Assembly (NCBI GenBank): GCA_965214705.1
Contig: CBDCCI010000002.1
Location: 2,784,001-2,848,000, forward strand
Length of the DNA stretch: 64,000 bases
Reading direction: 5' to 3'
DNA from: Alphaproteobacteria bacterium
Lineage (GTDB): Bacteria > Pseudomonadota > Alphaproteobacteria > UBA828
Below are positions 3,031-6,847 of this stretch, one piece after another (position 1 is the stretch's first letter; every line of letters starts with the position of its first letter). A model generated the notes under the pieces. It saw only the letters and a program-made list of their open reading frames with translations, was not told the origin of the DNA and did not search any database. A program made the translations under genes and the position numbers.

Positions 3031-3504
3031 GTGAGCGACAAATCCGCCCCCGGCGGCAAACGAATTGCGCAAAATCGCAAGGCGCGCCGCGACTATCATC
3101 TCGAACGCCCCTTCGAGGTCGGCATCCGGCTCACCGGGACCGAGGTCAAGTCGCTCCGGGCAGGACGGGCCAACATCAACGATGCCTACGCCACCGAACG
3201 TGGCGGCGAGGTGTTTCTCATCAACGCCCACATCGCCCAATACGACGGCGCCGGCCCGTTCAATCACGACCCACTACGGCCGCGAAAGCTGCTGCTGCAC
3301 AAGCGGGAGATACGCAAGCTGGTGGGGGCGCTGCGCCGTGGCGGCGTGACCCTGGTCCCGCTCGCCCTCTACTTCAACGAGCGCGGTATCGCCAAGGTGG
3401 CGCTCGCCATGGCCTCGGGAAAACGCAAGTACGACAAGCGCGCCGCGGAGAAGGCGCGGGACTGGCAGCGCCAGAAGGAACGGCTGGTCCGCGAACGCGG
3501 ATAG
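3031..3504 (+). CDS. smpB: SsrA-binding protein
   Basis: IAQNRKARRDY, GTEVKSLR, RKLLLHKREI and GKRKYDKR motifs. Confidence 0.97.
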   Translation: MSDKSAPGGKRIAQNRKARRDYHLERPFEVGIRLTGTEVKSLRAGRANINDAYATERGGEVFLINAHIAQYDGAGPFNHDPLRPRKLLLHKREIRKLVGALRRGGVTLVPLALYFNERGIAKVALAMASGKRKYDKRAAEKARDWQRQKERLVRERG

Positions 3505-3509
3505 AAGGA

Positions 3510-3523
3510 TTGAACGAAGCCGC
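3510..3523. repeat. Left 14-bp inverted repeat TTGAACGAAGCCGC
   Basis: Exact reverse complement of 6116-6129. Confidence 0.85.
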
Positions 3524-3740
3524 TACGCGGAGTTAGCGGCGTAGAGTTCATTCATTTCCGAGGCGTCGCGGGTGCCGTTTGTTCTGTGCGTTCGCTTCCC
3601 GGTTGCGTCAGTGGCGCTCCGCCCGTCGGGTGGCGGATCCCCAGCAGCCTCCCGATCACCAGTGGTTAGCATCGACCCCTGCGACGGACCGTCGCCGGAT
3701 CGGTCCGGCGGCGCGCCGTCGCGATCCAGGGAGATCGATA

Positions 3741-4619
3741 ATGACCGGGACCGCGTGCGACACGAACACCGTCACCCCTCTTCGCCAGCGCATGGAGGAG
3801 CAGCTCCGCATCGCCAATCTGGCCGCGAGCACGTCCAAGGCCTACATCTGCGAGATCAAGAACCTGGCCAGGTACTACGACGCCTCGCCGGACGAGCTCG
3901 ACGCCGAGCAGGTGCGCCAGTGGTACCTGGGGCGGATCGACAAGGGGCTCAGTCCGGGCACGACCAACGTCTCCTTCGCCGCGCTGAACTTCCTCTACAT
4001 CGACACACTCGGCTGGCCTGACCATGTCGCCGGCCTGCGCTCCCGCAAGAAGCCCGGCAAGCTGCCGCGCTACATGTCGGAGCAGGAGGTCGAGCACCTC
4101 ATCCTTGCGACACCCGACCTCCGCCACCGTGCTGCCATTGTCACCGGCTATGGCGGCGGGCTCCGCATCTCCGAGACCTTGGCCATCAAGGTCGGCGACA
4201 TCCTGTCGGAGAAGAAGCTGCTGCACATCCCCTCCGGCAAAGGCGGCACCGAGAGAATGGCACCGTTGCCGGACATCGTCATCCACTACTTGCGCGTCTA
4301 CTACAGGAACATCTGGCCGCGTCCGACGAGCTGGCTCTTCTACGGCGTCTCGCTCGACAGGCCCATCGCAACGGAGACCTTGCAGGCCGCCTTCAGGAGG
4401 GCGCGCGACATTGCCGAGCTCGACCGCAGCTACACCTTCCATTGCCTGCGCCATTCGGCGGCGACCCATCTCCTCGAGCGCGGCGGCGATATCGAGGTGA
4501 TCCGGGACATGCTCGGCCATCGAAGCGCGAACACGACCCGTCACTACGCCCGCGTCACCGGCAAGATGTTCGAGGGCCTCGACCACCCGATCTCAGGCTT
4601 CGCAGCGTTGCGCAACTGA
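3741..4619 (+). CDS. Tyrosine recombinase/integrase with N-terminal SAM-like domain
   Basis: GGGLRISE, GKGG, HCLRHSAATH, LGH and TRHY provide the catalytic R-K-H-R-H-Y set; GGGAG upstream of ATG 3741. Confidence 0.92.
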   Translation: MTGTACDTNTVTPLRQRMEEQLRIANLAASTSKAYICEIKNLARYYDASPDELDAEQVRQWYLGRIDKGLSPGTTNVSFAALNFLYIDTLGWPDHVAGLRSRKKPGKLPRYMSEQEVEHLILATPDLRHRAAIVTGYGGGLRISETLAIKVGDILSEKKLLHIPSGKGGTERMAPLPDIVIHYLRVYYRNIWPRPTSWLFYGVSLDRPIATETLQAAFRRARDIAELDRSYTFHCLRHSAATHLLERGGDIEVIRDMLGHRSANTTRHYARVTGKMFEGLDHPISGFAALRN

Positions 4620-4625
4620 CGGCGC

Positions 4626-5867
4626 GTGGAGGCCGAACGCGCGGGCGTGGCGGAGATCTTCCGCCGCGCCGGCGCCGCTTTCCGTGAGCGCCACAAAGGG
4701 CGCATCGACGCCGCCCGGCTCAAGGTCATGGGCGCCATCGAGGCGTGCCGCACCGCCGTGCTCGGCGGCCACATGTACGCCTGCGAGGGCTGCGGGCGCG
4801 AGCATCCGCTCTTCAACTCCTGCCGCAACCGCCACTGCCCCACCTGCCAGGGTCTCGCCGCCAACCTCTGGAGCGAGGAGCGCGCCGGGGACATCCTGCC
4901 GGTGCCCTACTTCCATGTGGTCTTCACCCTGCCCAAGGAGGTTGCCGCCATTGCCTTCTGCAACCGCAGGGTGGTGTTCGACATCCTCTTCCGGGCCGTC
5001 GCCGAGACCCTGCGCACCATCGCCGCCGATCCCCGCCACGGCGGCATGCGCATCGGCGGCACCGCGGTCCTCCATACCTGGGATCAGAAGCTCCGCTTCC
5101 ACCCGCACCTGCACGTGGTCGTGCCCAACGCGGGCTTCGACGTAGACAGTGGCGAGTGGAAGACGGGGAGCACCACCTTCCTCGCCCCCGTCAAGGTCCT
5201 CGGCAGCCTGTTCCGCCGCCTCTTCCTCGAGGAGCTCGCCCGCGCCCACGGCCGGGGGGACCTGGAGTTCCACGGCACCCTCGCCCACCTCGCCAATCCC
5301 GGCGAGTTCCACGCCACGCTTGCCGCCGCCCGGGCCAGGGACTGGGTGGTCTACGCCAAGCGGCCCTTCCGCGGGCCTGAGCAGGTCTTCCGGTACCTGT
5401 CGCACTACACGCACAGGATCGCCATCTCCGACAGCCGCATCGTCTCCTTCGACGGCGAGACGGTCTCCTTCCGCCACCGAAAGCCCAAGGCGCCGGGGCA
5501 GAGAAAGCCGCGCTACGGCATCGCCACCGTGAGCGCCGACGAGTTCATCCGCCGCTTCCTGAGGCACGTCCTGCCGGACGGCATGCACCGCATTCGCTAC
5601 TTCGGCATCCTCGCCAACGGCTGCCGCGCCAGCACGCTGGAGAGAGCACGCCAGGCTCTCGGCGCCCTCGGCTGCGCCGCCCCCGAGGGAAGCGTGGACG
5701 GCGCTCGGGCCGAGCCCGACGAAGAGCCCGAGATCGGCACCGCGCCCGTGGCCTGCCCCCACTGCGGCGGCGTCATGCGCCTCGTCCGCGAAATCCGCCG
5801 CCGCCATGAGCCCCGCTCGACGCGCGGCCCGCCGGCGCTGCCGCCGACCCACAGGGGGAAACCGTGA
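4626..5867 (+). CDS. IS91-family (Y2/HUH) transposase
   Basis: Zn-binding NSCRNRHCPTCQ, HVVFTLP, HUH motif HPHLHVV, Y2 motif YLSHY, HRIRYFG and C-terminal CPHCG. Confidence 0.93.
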   Translation: MEAERAGVAEIFRRAGAAFRERHKGRIDAARLKVMGAIEACRTAVLGGHMYACEGCGREHPLFNSCRNRHCPTCQGLAANLWSEERAGDILPVPYFHVVFTLPKEVAAIAFCNRRVVFDILFRAVAETLRTIAADPRHGGMRIGGTAVLHTWDQKLRFHPHLHVVVPNAGFDVDSGEWKTGSTTFLAPVKVLGSLFRRLFLEELARAHGRGDLEFHGTLAHLANPGEFHATLAAARARDWVVYAKRPFRGPEQVFRYLSHYTHRIAISDSRIVSFDGETVSFRHRKPKAPGQRKPRYGIATVSADEFIRRFLRHVLPDGMHRIRYFGILANGCRASTLERARQALGALGCAAPEGSVDGARAEPDEEPEIGTAPVACPHCGGVMRLVREIRRRHEPRSTRGPPALPPTHRGKP

Positions 5868-6115
5868 GACGCCCGCTCGCTTCGGCCCCGCGCAACGGCG
5901 CCAAAGCGCCGACGCACGACCGAACCTGTCTCCGCTTGAGCCGGGCTGACAGCCCTCGGCTCACACCCCGCTCAGTCCTCGCAGCGTGCGCCCGCATGCC
6001 TGCCGAAAGACCGGCGCGAGCGTCGATTTTATGCGCAACTCTGCTGCCGGTGGATGCCGCCTGACGCTGACATCAGCGCACTTTCCACATAGCTCAACTT
6101 CGCCTCTCGTGGCCC

Positions 6116-6171
6116 GCGGCTTCGTTCAAAAGGGTTGGGCAGGCTCTCGAGAGAGAGCCTGCCCAACCCTT
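6116..6171. repeat. Right inverted repeat plus 19-bp perfect hairpin
   Basis: GCGGCTTCGTTCAA followed by AAGGGTTGGGCAGGCTCTC-gaga-GAGAGCCTGCCCAACCCTT. Confidence 0.85.
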
Positions 6172-6184
6172 AACCTTTGCCGGC

Positions 6185-6847
6185 TCAGGCGCGGGCCTCG
6201 TCCAACACATCCCGAATCGCGGCGAAGACATCGGCAAACATCGCCGGCGTGAGACGGCCCGTGTTCGTGTTGAGGCGAGAACAGTGGTAGCTATCGAACA
6301 GTAGGCGCCCGTCTTCCAAAGAATGGACCGCGCCGTGGACGAAGCGATGGCTGCCGGCGCGGAACCCCAGCGACCTCAGCACCGCGCCGTGAGCGACCAG
6401 GCCCAGCGCGAGGATCGCCCGAAGCCGTGTCATCGCCGCGATCTCGGCCGTGAGGAACTGACGGCACGCCGCGATTTCCGCTCCCTTCGGCTGGTTCTGC
6501 GGAGGGACACAGCGAACCGCATTGGTGATCCGGCAATCGTGCAGGGTGAGGCCATCGGCGGCGTGGGCGCCGTAGGCACCGTGGGCGAAGCCGAAATCGC
6601 CGAGAGTGGCGTAAAGCAGGTCGCCGGCAAAATCGCCTGTGAAGGGCCGGCCTGTGCGATTGGCGCCGCGCAGGCCGGGCGCGAGACCGACGATCAACAG
6701 TCGCGCATCAAGTCCACCGAAGCTCGTCACCGGTGCATTGTGCCAGTCCGGCTCGGCAGCCCTATGACCTTCACGAAAGGCGGCGAGTCGTGGGCACAGG
6801 TCGCAGTCCCGGTCCGGTGCGCGCGGAGCCGGCGCCGGCGTGCTCAC
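6185..6847 (-). CDS. Uracil-DNA glycosylase (family 4/5, Fe-S type)
   Basis: CDLCPRL, VGLAPGLRGANRTGRPFTGD, NAVRCVPPQN and SYHCSRLNTNTG. Confidence 0.92.
   Translation of the reverse strand: MSTPAPAPRAPDRDCDLCPRLAAFREGHRAAEPDWHNAPVTSFGGLDARLLIVGLAPGLRGANRTGRPFTGDFAGDLLYATLGDFGFAHGAYGAHAADGLTLHDCRITNAVRCVPPQNQPKGAEIAACRQFLTAEIAAMTRLRAILALGLVAHGAVLRSLGFRAGSHRFVHGAVHSLEDGRLLFDSYHCSRLNTNTGRLTPAMFADVFAAIRDVLDEARA

Follow-up and report, generated by a model that had tools for sequence, protein, structure and literature searches.

In the window, i.e., the whole stretch of 64,000 nucleotides that was analysed, an insertion sequence of the IS91 family, from the branch that carries an integrase, lies between smpB and a UDG-family gene. 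Its two genes and its terminal features are listed below.

3510–6175, + strand: whole insertion sequence, 2666 bp (equivalent register 3512–6177)
3510–3523, + strand: left tip (IRL), which starts with TT, followed by a terIS-type tetranucleotide at 3512–3515; perfect complement of 6116–6129
3519–3540, + strand: small subterminal left hairpin (predicted fold, 7-bp stem), built like the terIS hairpin of IS1294 and IS91
3741–4619, + strand: int, encoding a 292-aa tyrosine recombinase of the Xer / integron-integrase type
4626–5867, + strand: tnpA, encoding a 413-aa IS91-family Y2 HUH transposase with an N-terminal zinc domain
6080–6093, + strand: motif resembling, by eye, the terminal oriIS of IS1294, IS91, and IS801; internal here, 22 nt before IRR
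6116–6129, + strand: IRR, a reverse-complemented copy of the left tip, in subterminal position (46 nt from the right end)
6130–6171, + strand: terminal hairpin, a perfect 19-bp stem (6130–6148 / 6153–6171) with a 4-nt loop
6172–6175, + strand: 4-nt tail, the last bases of the element, predicted to form an unpaired bulge once the ends are joined
6176–6177, + strand: target TT, host sequence, single at the empty site

The limits of the element can be read from an orthologous empty site. The original prediction had proposed to look for such a site between smpB and the UDG gene of relatives, and it was found in a genome of the same genus (L112), where 100/100 bases of the left flank of the element are identical. 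There, position 3509 is joined directly to 6176, with one TT and without the hairpin, and the inserted piece is therefore 3510–6175 or, equally, 3512–6177. The left end first proposed, 3510, is thus retained, and contigs from four public runs begin exactly at this position; no joint leading from the right end back to the left end was listed for these contigs, which speaks neither for nor against a circle. The right end had been placed at 6171 and has to be moved to 6175, since 4 more bases follow the hairpin in 86/86 right ends read in the forward direction; in the same genome, copies begin at 3510 and extend to 6175–6177. The copies do end elsewhere than predicted, by 4 nt, which corrects the coordinates and leaves the idea standing. 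An AAGG..CCTT symmetry pointed out in the flanks is due to chance, the bases of the left flank being host sequence that is present at the empty site too.

The element has spread recently through its host genome, where about 100 near-identical copies are found (about 100 left ends and 94 right ends were counted, the latter located by the pattern of the 3′ hairpin arm plus tail with at most one mismatch). No short non-autonomous derivative was seen in this genome, no right end being closer than 2600 nt to a left tip, and no known RNA family was matched within the element at E values up to 0.1. A bias in orientation relative to replication would bear on whether the targets are single-stranded. 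Against the GC skew, which is poorly defined in this IS-rich assembly, a hand tally from positions and skew extremes gave 34:15 for contig 1 and 16:17 for contig 3, and a scripted count with the 200-kb local skew gave 23:26 and 15:18, i.e., no bias.

Insertion takes place immediately 5′ of a TT, without target duplication, and the TT at the left end is carried by the element. Filled sites have one TT inside the left end and another after the right end; most of the 18 empty sites, 17 paralogous (a count that omits two self-matches at a tandem copy) and one orthologous, have a single TT. The single TT of the L112 site agrees with the early remark that no long target duplication is visible. The first dinucleotide is TT in 95/99 unique left junctions, and TT follows the element in 69/83 unique right junctions. 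The other 14 right junctions have a different target dinucleotide (AT in six, CT in five, GA in three) while their left end still starts with TT, which places the crossover 5′ of the TT. Four of the 99 left junctions start with another dinucleotide, and two of these keep the target dinucleotide on the left, which is not accounted for by one crossover 5′ of TT.

The target is more than a dinucleotide. A pattern of about 15–17 bp surrounds the insertion point, with A at −8 in 51/97 sites, a purine at −7, pyrimidines at −2 and −1, then TT, followed by G at +1 (41/78), C at +4 (57/78), and G at +5 (44/78). The right half of this pattern copies the left tip of the element. On the other side, the AA found 6 bp upstream of the TT gives the target some resemblance to two recombinase half-sites around a 6-bp spacer; the left arm shows little dyad symmetry (G at −12 in 44/97, p = 0.04). 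Most targets share with the element only the TT and three scattered bases. Folding of the target itself into a hairpin was considered and rejected, since arm complementarity per site is no higher than in shuffled sequences (eight position pairs, p 0.18–0.92).

The two ends of the element are related to each other. The left tip is kept at the left end of related loci, and the stem of the small left hairpin covaries among relatives when left-end strings are compared. At the right end, the complementarity to the left end noticed initially is fully present: the 14-nt tip matches IRR perfectly, directly 5′ of the terminal hairpin, and none of 300 shuffled right ends gave a complement of this length. 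Across families, where this complementarity was scored as mismatch counts, IRR differs from its own left tip by 0–3 positions. End-to-end covariation was found in three families (L059, L083, and L086), which changed on both sides and have no mismatch, and several families show 1–3 mismatches in the 14-bp helix. Such compensatory changes are not proof of base pairing, since any protein that binds both ends would also lead to covarying inverted repeats.

The 19-bp hairpin stands as described at first. Its stem is GC-rich, with 4 T after it on the minus strand; its 5′ arm has at most one mismatch at 94/94 right ends, and its loop is flipped in 9/94 copies. A host terminator, which had been considered as another origin for it, is discarded: each of the 94 right ends has the hairpin, and the orthologous empty site as well as many paralogous ones lack it. 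Among relatives, 7/15 pairs are altered on both sides and 81% of the cells are paired; 0/500 shuffles reach the observed score, and controls slid along the sequence are 24–47% paired. Sequence and length of the hairpin thus vary while its pairing is kept, which points to a single-stranded structure rather than to a duplex binding site. The tail is 7–8 nt long at the equivalent place in relatives. From Alphaproteobacteria to Bacteroidota, the same end plan is maintained, namely a left tip, its complement, a covarying hairpin, a short tail, and TT, and the right-hand module (tip complement, hairpin, and tail) is kept in TnpA relatives down to 36% identity.

When the right end is joined to the left end, the original prediction expected a perfect palindrome with a 33-bp stem or, if TT were shared with the target, a 2-nt bulge. 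Neither form holds: 4 further element bases follow the hairpin at every right end, so that the joined ends are predicted to fold into two helices, of 14 bp and 19 bp, with 4 nt bulging out on the 3′ side. A single natural head-to-tail junction is present in the genome (L100), and it retains the 4 tail bases. It has in addition gained the complement of the tail on the other arm, together with a flipped loop, which makes it a perfect palindrome with 37-bp arms. The whole junction must thus have paired within one strand at least once to be “corrected” in this way.

Both proteins are of known types, as the first reading of an integrase next to a rolling-circle transposase had it. TnpA matches Y2_Tnp (2.7e-54) and Zn_Tnp_IS91 (4.3e-30) in Pfam and scores 382.5 bits against NCBIfam NF033538 (cut-off 125), which places this HUH protein in the IS91 family. 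Its H159/H161, Y257/Y261, and cysteines are invariant in 59/59 relatives. Int matches Phage_integrase (4.4e-33) and Phage_int_SAM_4, and its relatives in the PDB are a XerC-like protein (4a8e), XerD (1a0p), and IntI4 (2a3v). It remains below the Xer equivalog cut-offs (XerC 134.4 vs 335, XerD 118 vs 330, XerA 143.6 vs 220) and below that of the IntI profile TIGR02249 (130.2 bits vs 265). Its match to IntI profiles comes in two stretches, profile positions 3–175 and, for NF011946, 253–328, the segment between them being missing. R142, K167, H234, R237, H260, and Y269 are invariant in 61/61 distinct relatives. With the catalytic sets of both proteins invariant, Int is thus kept as an enzyme and not only as a DNA binder. 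In 75/79 related loci, int immediately precedes tnpA on the same strand (among the other four, the upstream sequence is shorter than 510 nt in three, and the last is a 5′-truncated copy); the two genes are 6 nt apart here and overlap in two relatives (L104 and L105).

To our knowledge, the IS91 family has no terminal inverted repeats, and the tyrosine recombinase that some of its members encode has no explained role to date. In ISfinder, the integrase-carrying IS91-family entries presumably have the same gene pair in the same order as here, with the role of the integrase given as unknown; the family of the window copy differs by its expansion to about 100 copies. A full-text literature search found no paper on the role of the recombinase, and a literature search on these entries found none on their ends or mechanism. 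The precise map of the ends obtained here shows which part, i.e., the tip complement, the hairpin, and the tail, came with the recombinase.

In a comparison with IS91, the transposase is of the same type (zinc domain, HUH, two Tyr), and the left end follows the same plan, a tetranucleotide, 3 nt, and a small hairpin; in two canonical copies (L101 and L103) the hairpin has a 6-bp stem with a 4-nt loop. An ori-like motif is found downstream of tnpA in both cases, subterminal palindromes are present at both ends (here 3519–3540 and 6130–6171), and there is no target duplication, the left-terminal bases being those found after the right end, as in the IS91 rule described in PMC13181058, an in silico study of IS91 termini. 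Several features differ. The recombinase gene occupies the place of IS91 orf121. The ori motif, which is 2 nt from the end in three canonical copies (IS1294-like, IS801-like, and IS91, the integrase-less set used for comparison), is internal in integrase-bearing elements; among the 18 such families whose IRR was correctly located, the element of the window and subfamily C included, 16 have it 12–40 nt upstream of IRR. Beyond it, the right end carries the extra module, which was found only in the integrase-bearing elements examined and is absent from the three integrase-less ones. At their right end, the longest complement of the left tip measures 10 nt (subterminal) in the IS1294-like copy, 6 nt in the IS801-like one, and 5 nt in IS91, vs 14 nt here. 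The 14-bp perfect repeat 3510–3523 / 6116–6129 is in itself unlike the IS91 family, and it is no classical terminal repeat, its right copy being subterminal. The bases shared with the target are TT plus scattered ones, unlike the tetranucleotides reported for IS91, IS801, and IS1294. For IS91, PMC13181058 likewise describes a tetranucleotide as the target, in contrast to the 15–17-bp pattern.

These observations fit a possible scenario, to which we give a probability of about 0.4, in which the HUH protein makes a single-stranded circle and Int recombines its folded junction. The Y2 transposase would peel off or replicate one strand and close it into a circle, a form demonstrated for IS91 itself (PMC13181058). 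In the circle, the left tip would pair with its inverted copy, so that the joint would lie at the edge of the 14-bp helix, beside the short bulge and the hairpin. The Xer/IntI-like recombinase of the element would bind this folded junction and exchange one strand with a loosely defined target just 5′ of TT, and replication would complete the insertion. Apart from the corrected ends and the bulge in place of a perfect stem, this is the model of the original prediction. The cassette-like topology, the link between Int and the right-hand module, the 15–17-bp target pattern, and the invariant catalytic residues are all counted as fitting this idea.

As far as can be judged from the letters and their predicted folding, the topology of the ends matches that of an integron cassette, whose attC site is recombined by IntI as a folded single strand (the bottom strand only), with replication finishing the reaction. 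In both cases, the unit starts with TT and purine-rich bases, the complement of this start lies just 5′ of a hairpin that is variable in sequence and conserved in pairing, next come some unpaired bases, and the crossover takes place immediately 5′ of TT. The layout of the joint would be that of a folded attC site, two helices and an unpaired spacer being comparable to the R box, the UCS, and the L stem with its variable top (VTS) presented in PMC2727003. In the predicted fold, the outer helix is conserved mainly in sequence, with the three compensated families, the inner hairpin covaries, and no extrahelical single bases were identified. The differences are nevertheless several. Conserved AAC and GTT triplets mark the two boundaries of attC sites (PMC2727003), which the AA-N / N-TT junction of the element matches only by two-thirds, without a G:C pair beside the crossover. 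In the element, the outer helix measures 14 bp, vs about 7 bp in attC. Int belongs to the Xer/IntI neighbourhood, as indicated by its TIGR02249 score and the IntI4 structure, but it lacks the IntI-specific insertion and scores far under the cut-off. There is no attI platform, promoter, or array here; unlike a cassette, the unit has its own genes for a HUH enzyme and a recombinase, and its insertions are scattered over about 100 sites.

A HUH Rep protein is combined with Xer recombination of a folded single-stranded attP in CTX-type filamentous phages and other IMEX. If Int acts on the folded junction, the parallel would be as follows: a HUH protein supplies the single strands, an Xer-type recombinase works on a hairpin made of two inverted half-sites and exchanges one strand, and the process is completed by replication. 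These phages differ in relying on the host XerCD at a single dif site, whereas the present element has its own recombinase and a loose target choice. In helitrons, too, a few bases separate a hairpin from the 3′ end, and insertion between the host dinucleotides AT or TT leaves no duplication (PMC10288648); they differ by their RepHel helicase fusion, the lack of a tyrosine recombinase, and their eukaryotic hosts.

The same ends can be read without giving Int a part in defining the insertion, and this alternative is somewhat less likely than the first. TnpA would then perform initiation, termination, circle closure, and insertion, with the tip, its inverted copy, the hairpin, and the tail as its ori/ter signals. 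Int would have an accessory catalytic task, for instance resolving tandem copies or multimeric circles, or would take the terminus-fidelity role of IS91 Orf121, whose position it occupies directly upstream of tnpA; the catalytic residues of TnpA are invariant, and the one tandem copy in the genome is the type of product on which a resolvase would act. A geometry of hairpin, 4–8 nt, and cut is common among HUH enzymes, and the left-end plan is that of IS1294 and IS91, with a right half of the target that mimics the left tip as in the IS91 rule. In integrase-less IS91, according to PMC13181058, the left-terminal bases are those of the target, nothing is duplicated, both ends have subterminal hairpins, and the bottom strand forms a functional single-stranded circle. 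Since these properties are found in a canonical family that has no recombinase, TnpA acting alone stays a serious rival. It leaves unexplained the extra right module, which occurs only with Int, and the internal position of the canonical ori motif. Moreover, the boundary is shifted outward by 2 nt with respect to the canonical ter plan, the target pattern with its AA-N6-TT element is much longer than a tetranucleotide, and no duplex site of the resolution type was identified.

Conversely, Int might do the entire work on double-stranded DNA, excising and integrating a circle by two strand exchanges at a short core around TT, with TnpA as a mere rolling-circle replicase starting from the internal ori motif and the hairpin as an incidental or regulatory element. 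This possibility is improbable. The pair of a HUH Rep and a tyrosine integrase is usual in integrative plasmids and in ssDNA or dsDNA viruses, the ori-like motif is indeed internal, and the target resembles two half-sites with a 6-bp spacer. The two insertions that keep the target dinucleotide on the left, both into targets similar to the left tip, are also what an overlap heteroduplex would give. Yet the tip motifs at the junction are 46 bp apart in duplex form (50–90 bp in relatives), too far for one core site, and most targets lack the overlap identity that two-strand exchange normally needs. The covariation of a hairpin free to change in sequence and length has no role in a duplex site.

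Lastly, it is hardly credible that the hairpin is only a transcription barrier, insulating int-tnpA or ending the UDG transcript, and the tip complementarity an ordinary terminal inverted repeat: a perfect GC-rich stem does lie at the very end of the element, followed by 4 T on the minus strand, between two genes that converge with 14 nt between them at the empty site, but a terminator scan flags it on neither strand, in the Bradyrhizobium/Mesorhizobium branch the hairpin is long (about 70 nt), interrupted, and not accompanied by a T run, and both the fixed order of complement, hairpin, tail, and TT and the subterminal position of the repeat are left unexplained.

The preferred reading, recombination of a folded junction by Int, can be extended to a wider proposal, which we consider rather unlikely as a whole. 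Integrase-carrying IS91 elements would be self-mobilising, cassette-like single-stranded circles, for which the HUH enzyme would only make the circle, while an Xer-like recombinase without the integron insertion would paste the folded two-helix junction 5′ of TT, the target sites being only loosely defined. Should the recombinase use the folded junction as its substrate, single-strand recombination in the style of attC would have a second, independent case, outside integrons and in a very widespread transposon, and this would be a candidate for the kind of system behind the origin of attC sites and cassette capture. If, on the contrary, all steps are performed by the HUH enzyme, the element remains an example of how ends of the IS91 type can be rebuilt and of what a recombinase adds to them. 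With about 100 fresh copies, an empty site in a sister genome, and a precise map of the ends, the role of the recombinase becomes directly testable.

The distribution of such elements is broad: a single scan of species-representative genomes returned 547 related stretches. The int-tnpA pair is also carried by a Clostridium plasmid and a Myroides plasmid, and the Myroides locus L105 is of the type of ISWz1, a member of the IS91 family (PMC11322121).

The element, an integrase-carrying IS91-family insertion sequence, and its two flanking genes have the following features (window positions).

3031-3504, plus strand: smpB, flanking gene
3510-3523: left tip
3741-4619: int, 292-aa tyrosine recombinase (Int; Phage_integrase, 4.4e-33; Phage_int_SAM_4, 4.8e-12)
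4626-5867: tnpA, 413-aa IS91-family transposase (Y2_Tnp, 2.7e-54; Zn_Tnp_IS91, 4.3e-30; NF033538, 382.5 bits for a cut-off of 125)
6116-6129: complement of the left tip
6130-6171: terminal hairpin
6172-6175: tail
6176-6177: target TT
6185-6847, minus strand: UDG-family gene, flanking

The inserted piece runs from 3510 to 6175 (2666 bp) with no duplication, because the orthologous empty site of a same-genus genome (L112), whose left flank matches the window at 100 of 100 bases, joins 3509 straight to 6176. The original prediction had proposed looking for such an empty smpB-UDG site in relatives, and the one found here contains no hairpin. The left end it gave (3510) is retained, but its right end (6171) has to be moved outward, since the tail extends to 6175. 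Contigs from four public runs likewise break precisely at 3510. The two flanking genes are adjacent without the element in seven of the nine relatives examined, while the spacer of the remaining two is different and measures 141 or 249 nt. These genes are convergent, with stop codons just 14 nt apart at the empty site (window 3505-3509 plus 6176-6184; loci L112-L120). More distant relatives have 141-249 nt between them, and in one of these smpB is followed by a terminator-like hairpin.

The same limits can be read from the many copies in the assembly (7.92 Mb, three contigs). A search with the element as query returned 41 full-length matches, local BLAST 132 pieces, and pattern searches 100 left ends and 92 hairpin matches, of which 86 were forward-read and six were flipped-loop copies read on the opposite strand; a later count judged 94 right ends to be real. 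The left boundary is the base equivalent to 3510 in all copies, and the same four bases directly follow the hairpin in all 86 forward-read right ends. The dinucleotide after this tail is TT at 69 of 83 unique junctions (AT at six, CT at five, GA at three). A flank-to-flank match exists elsewhere in the genome for 19 of 66 intact copies, two of these being a tandem copy matching itself; paralogous empty sites are available for 17 copies, and most hold a single TT where the filled site shows TT on both sides. About 100 copies at 99.7-100% identity represent roughly 0.27 Mb, or 3% of the 7.9-Mb assembly. The genome also contains two sister subfamilies, about 80% identical, one with a degenerate hairpin (two copies), the other with an intact, covarying one (at least three copies).

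At 14 unique junctions, a target dinucleotide other than TT stays on the right while the left end retains TT. The left TT is thus carried by the element, and the exchange point lies directly 5' of TT in both partners. Exceptions concern 4 of 99 left junctions: two have left-tip-like targets and retain the target's own dinucleotide on the left, as confirmed by a paralogous empty site for the one at C3:1784953 (third contig); another shows AT on both sides, and the last is unexplained.

Target preferences in non-redundant flanks (97 left, 78 right)
-8: A (51/97)
-7: purine (75/97)
-2 and -1: pyrimidine (G at -1 in 5/97)
Dinucleotide: TT
+1: G (41/78)
+4: C (57/78)
+5: G (44/78)

The right half of the target is a copy of the left tip, and AA is found 6 bp upstream of TT. 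This pattern is long, in contrast to the tetranucleotide target reported for IS91 (PMC13181058). The mirror positions of +4/+5 are only weakly enriched. A target folded as a hairpin was rejected, because individual sites have no arm-to-arm complementarity. A related copy (L021, MAG chromosome OY763326.1) is embedded in a tandem array with a 12-nt repeat unit, which stops at the left junction and restarts after the right one, which indicates insertion at TT within the repeat unit.

A repeat finder detected a perfect 19-bp inverted repeat with a 4-nt loop (6130-6148/6153-6171) and showed 3510-3523 to be perfectly complementary to 6116-6129 over 14 nt, a length reached by none of 300 shuffles of the last 122 nt. 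When the end slices are joined computationally and folded with DNA parameters, a 14-bp helix and the 19-bp hairpin are predicted, with a bulge of 4 nt between them on the 3' side (-50.3 kcal/mol). Both pairings had been recognized in the original prediction; the perfect 33-bp stem that it built from them is interrupted by four element bases. The sole natural head-to-tail junction in the source genome (L100, G000:C2:646480-646780) retains the four tail bases. Its opposite arm carries, in addition, a complement of these bases, and its loop is flipped; it alone forms a perfect palindrome, each arm being 37 bp long. Nine of 94 right ends have an inverted 4-nt loop. Template switching is known to "correct" quasi-palindromes, and the L100 palindrome and the flipped loops are read here as such corrections. 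They thus imply that intrastrand pairing of the junction is possible in vivo, which does not imply a role in transposition.

ISfinder lists integrase-carrying IS91-family elements with an unexplained integrase; a full-text literature search on their ends or mechanism found no paper. Scanning species-representative genomes gave 547 stretches that code for a transposase relative, and 79 loci were retained. Int lies immediately upstream of tnpA on the same strand in 75 of these 79 loci; among the other four, the upstream sequence is shorter than 510 nt in three, and the last copy is truncated at its 5' end. The hosts are mainly Alphaproteobacteria, and also Betaproteobacteria, Gemmatimonadales, Bryobacterales, Fimbriimonas, Phycisphaera and Verrucomicrobiia; the pair also occurs on Clostridium and Myroides plasmids. 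End comparisons cover the branches with a delimitable left end, which sets aside a third branch. The left end consists of two bases (mostly TT, some AT), a ter-type tetranucleotide as in IS801/IS1294, 3 nt, and a hairpin of 5 bp with a 4-nt loop and a covarying stem. The right end has, in this order, the left tip in reverse complement, 3-6 nt, a hairpin, a 7-8-nt tail and TT; the tail has only 4 nt in the window because part of it is now paired. This end plan is retained in the Myroides element (transposase 36% identical), and loosely in the Clostridium one.

Right-end hairpins vary between families in sequence and length, with 10-bp stems at one extreme and interrupted structures spanning about 70 nt at the other. 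In an alignment of ten closer-branch right ends, 81% of cells are paired and 7 of 15 pairs have changed on both sides; this covariation was matched by none of 500 shuffles, and slid controls were 24-47% paired. Among families with a clear left tip, the outer helix has no mismatch in six, one in eight, two in seven and three in one. The original prediction had asked whether end-to-end complementarity covaries in other copies; changes of this kind occur in three loci (L059, L083, L086), in which both arms depart from the window sequence at one or two positions yet show no mismatch.

Three integrase-less elements were compared: an IS1294-like copy, an IS801-like copy and IS91 itself. Their left-end plan is that of 3512-3540 (tetranucleotide, 3 nt, small hairpin), with a 6-bp stem and a 4-nt loop in the IS1294-like copy and IS91; the observed left boundary lies 2 nt outside the position predicted from the canonical IS91 plan. 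At the right end of these three elements, the left tip has no counterpart in reverse complement. The longest complementarity between their ends is 10 nt and subterminal in the IS1294-like copy (1/300 shuffles), and 6 nt (157/300) and 5 nt (258/300) in the IS801-like copy and IS91, respectively. This 10-nt inverted repeat (L101, plasmid NZ_CP047128.1), with its left half directly internal to the left hairpin and its right half 12 nt short of the right end, has to our knowledge not been described before. The three right ends have a common motif 2 nt before the target, whereas a similar motif is internal here (6080-6093). Of the 18 integrase-bearing families with a correctly located tip complement, 16 have a motif recognizable by eye as similar, 12-40 nt upstream of this complement. 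The segment from tip complement to tail is thus an addition, and in this small sample it goes with the recombinase.

Int residues R142, K167, H234, R237, H260 and Y269 do not vary among 61 distinct Int sequences, nor do the HUH histidines, Y257/Y261 and zinc cysteines among 59 distinct transposases. Int is nearly equidistant from the XerA, XerC, integron-integrase and XerD profiles, well under every cut-off, and its closest solved structures are a XerC-like protein, XerD and IntI4. The integrated unit has the order of an integron cassette: it begins with TT and purines, the complement of this beginning is found immediately 5' of a hairpin of conserved structure, some unpaired bases come next, and the crossover lies 5' of TT. 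The two predicted helices and their unpaired spacer would correspond to the R box, central spacer and L stem of attC (PMC2727003). The integron-integrase profile, however, aligns to Int in two stretches, so that the integron-specific insertion is absent; the AAC/GTT triplets of attC are matched in part, and there is no platform at the element. Cassette-like topology, a right-end module associated with Int, invariant Int catalytic residues, a hairpin conserved in structure rather than in sequence, and a long target pattern are the grounds for proposing that the element may work like an integron cassette without being a member of the integron system.

The original prediction had the HUH enzyme produce a single-stranded circle, integrated by the recombinase in an attC-like manner. 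Modified so that Int recombines a folded, bulged junction, this scheme is given a probability of about 0.4. It is weakened by the integrase-less family, in which the HUH enzyme alone already inserts without duplication, mimics the target and uses a single-stranded circle; moreover, covarying inverted repeats are expected for any end-binding protein. A purely HUH-driven mechanism with an accessory recombinase, to which these integrase-less members lend support, comes out as only slightly less probable. Integrase action on duplex DNA seems unlikely. That the hairpin is purely a terminator is very improbable; the terminator scan did not flag it, and no Rfam family matched within the element.

The element is itself a target for other insertion sequences. 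About 20 copies are split at one same tnpA base (window-equivalent 4815) by an insert of about 1650 bp (e.g., L106, G000:C1:39426-41090), which encodes an IS110-family (DEDD) transposase (Transposase_20, 8.2e-12; DEDD_Tnp_IS110, 6.3e-08) and looks like a site-specific insertion sequence targeting the element. A 2.1-kb insertion sequence that encodes a DDE_Tnp_1 transposase and has a palindromic target of 4 bp (e.g., L107, G000:C2:692226-694420) sits in the tail (window-equivalent 6169-6175) of eight copies and of one sister-subfamily copy. These account for 9 of the 31 ends found of this sequence (roughly 16 copies), and the tail beside the hairpin is a marked hot spot for it.
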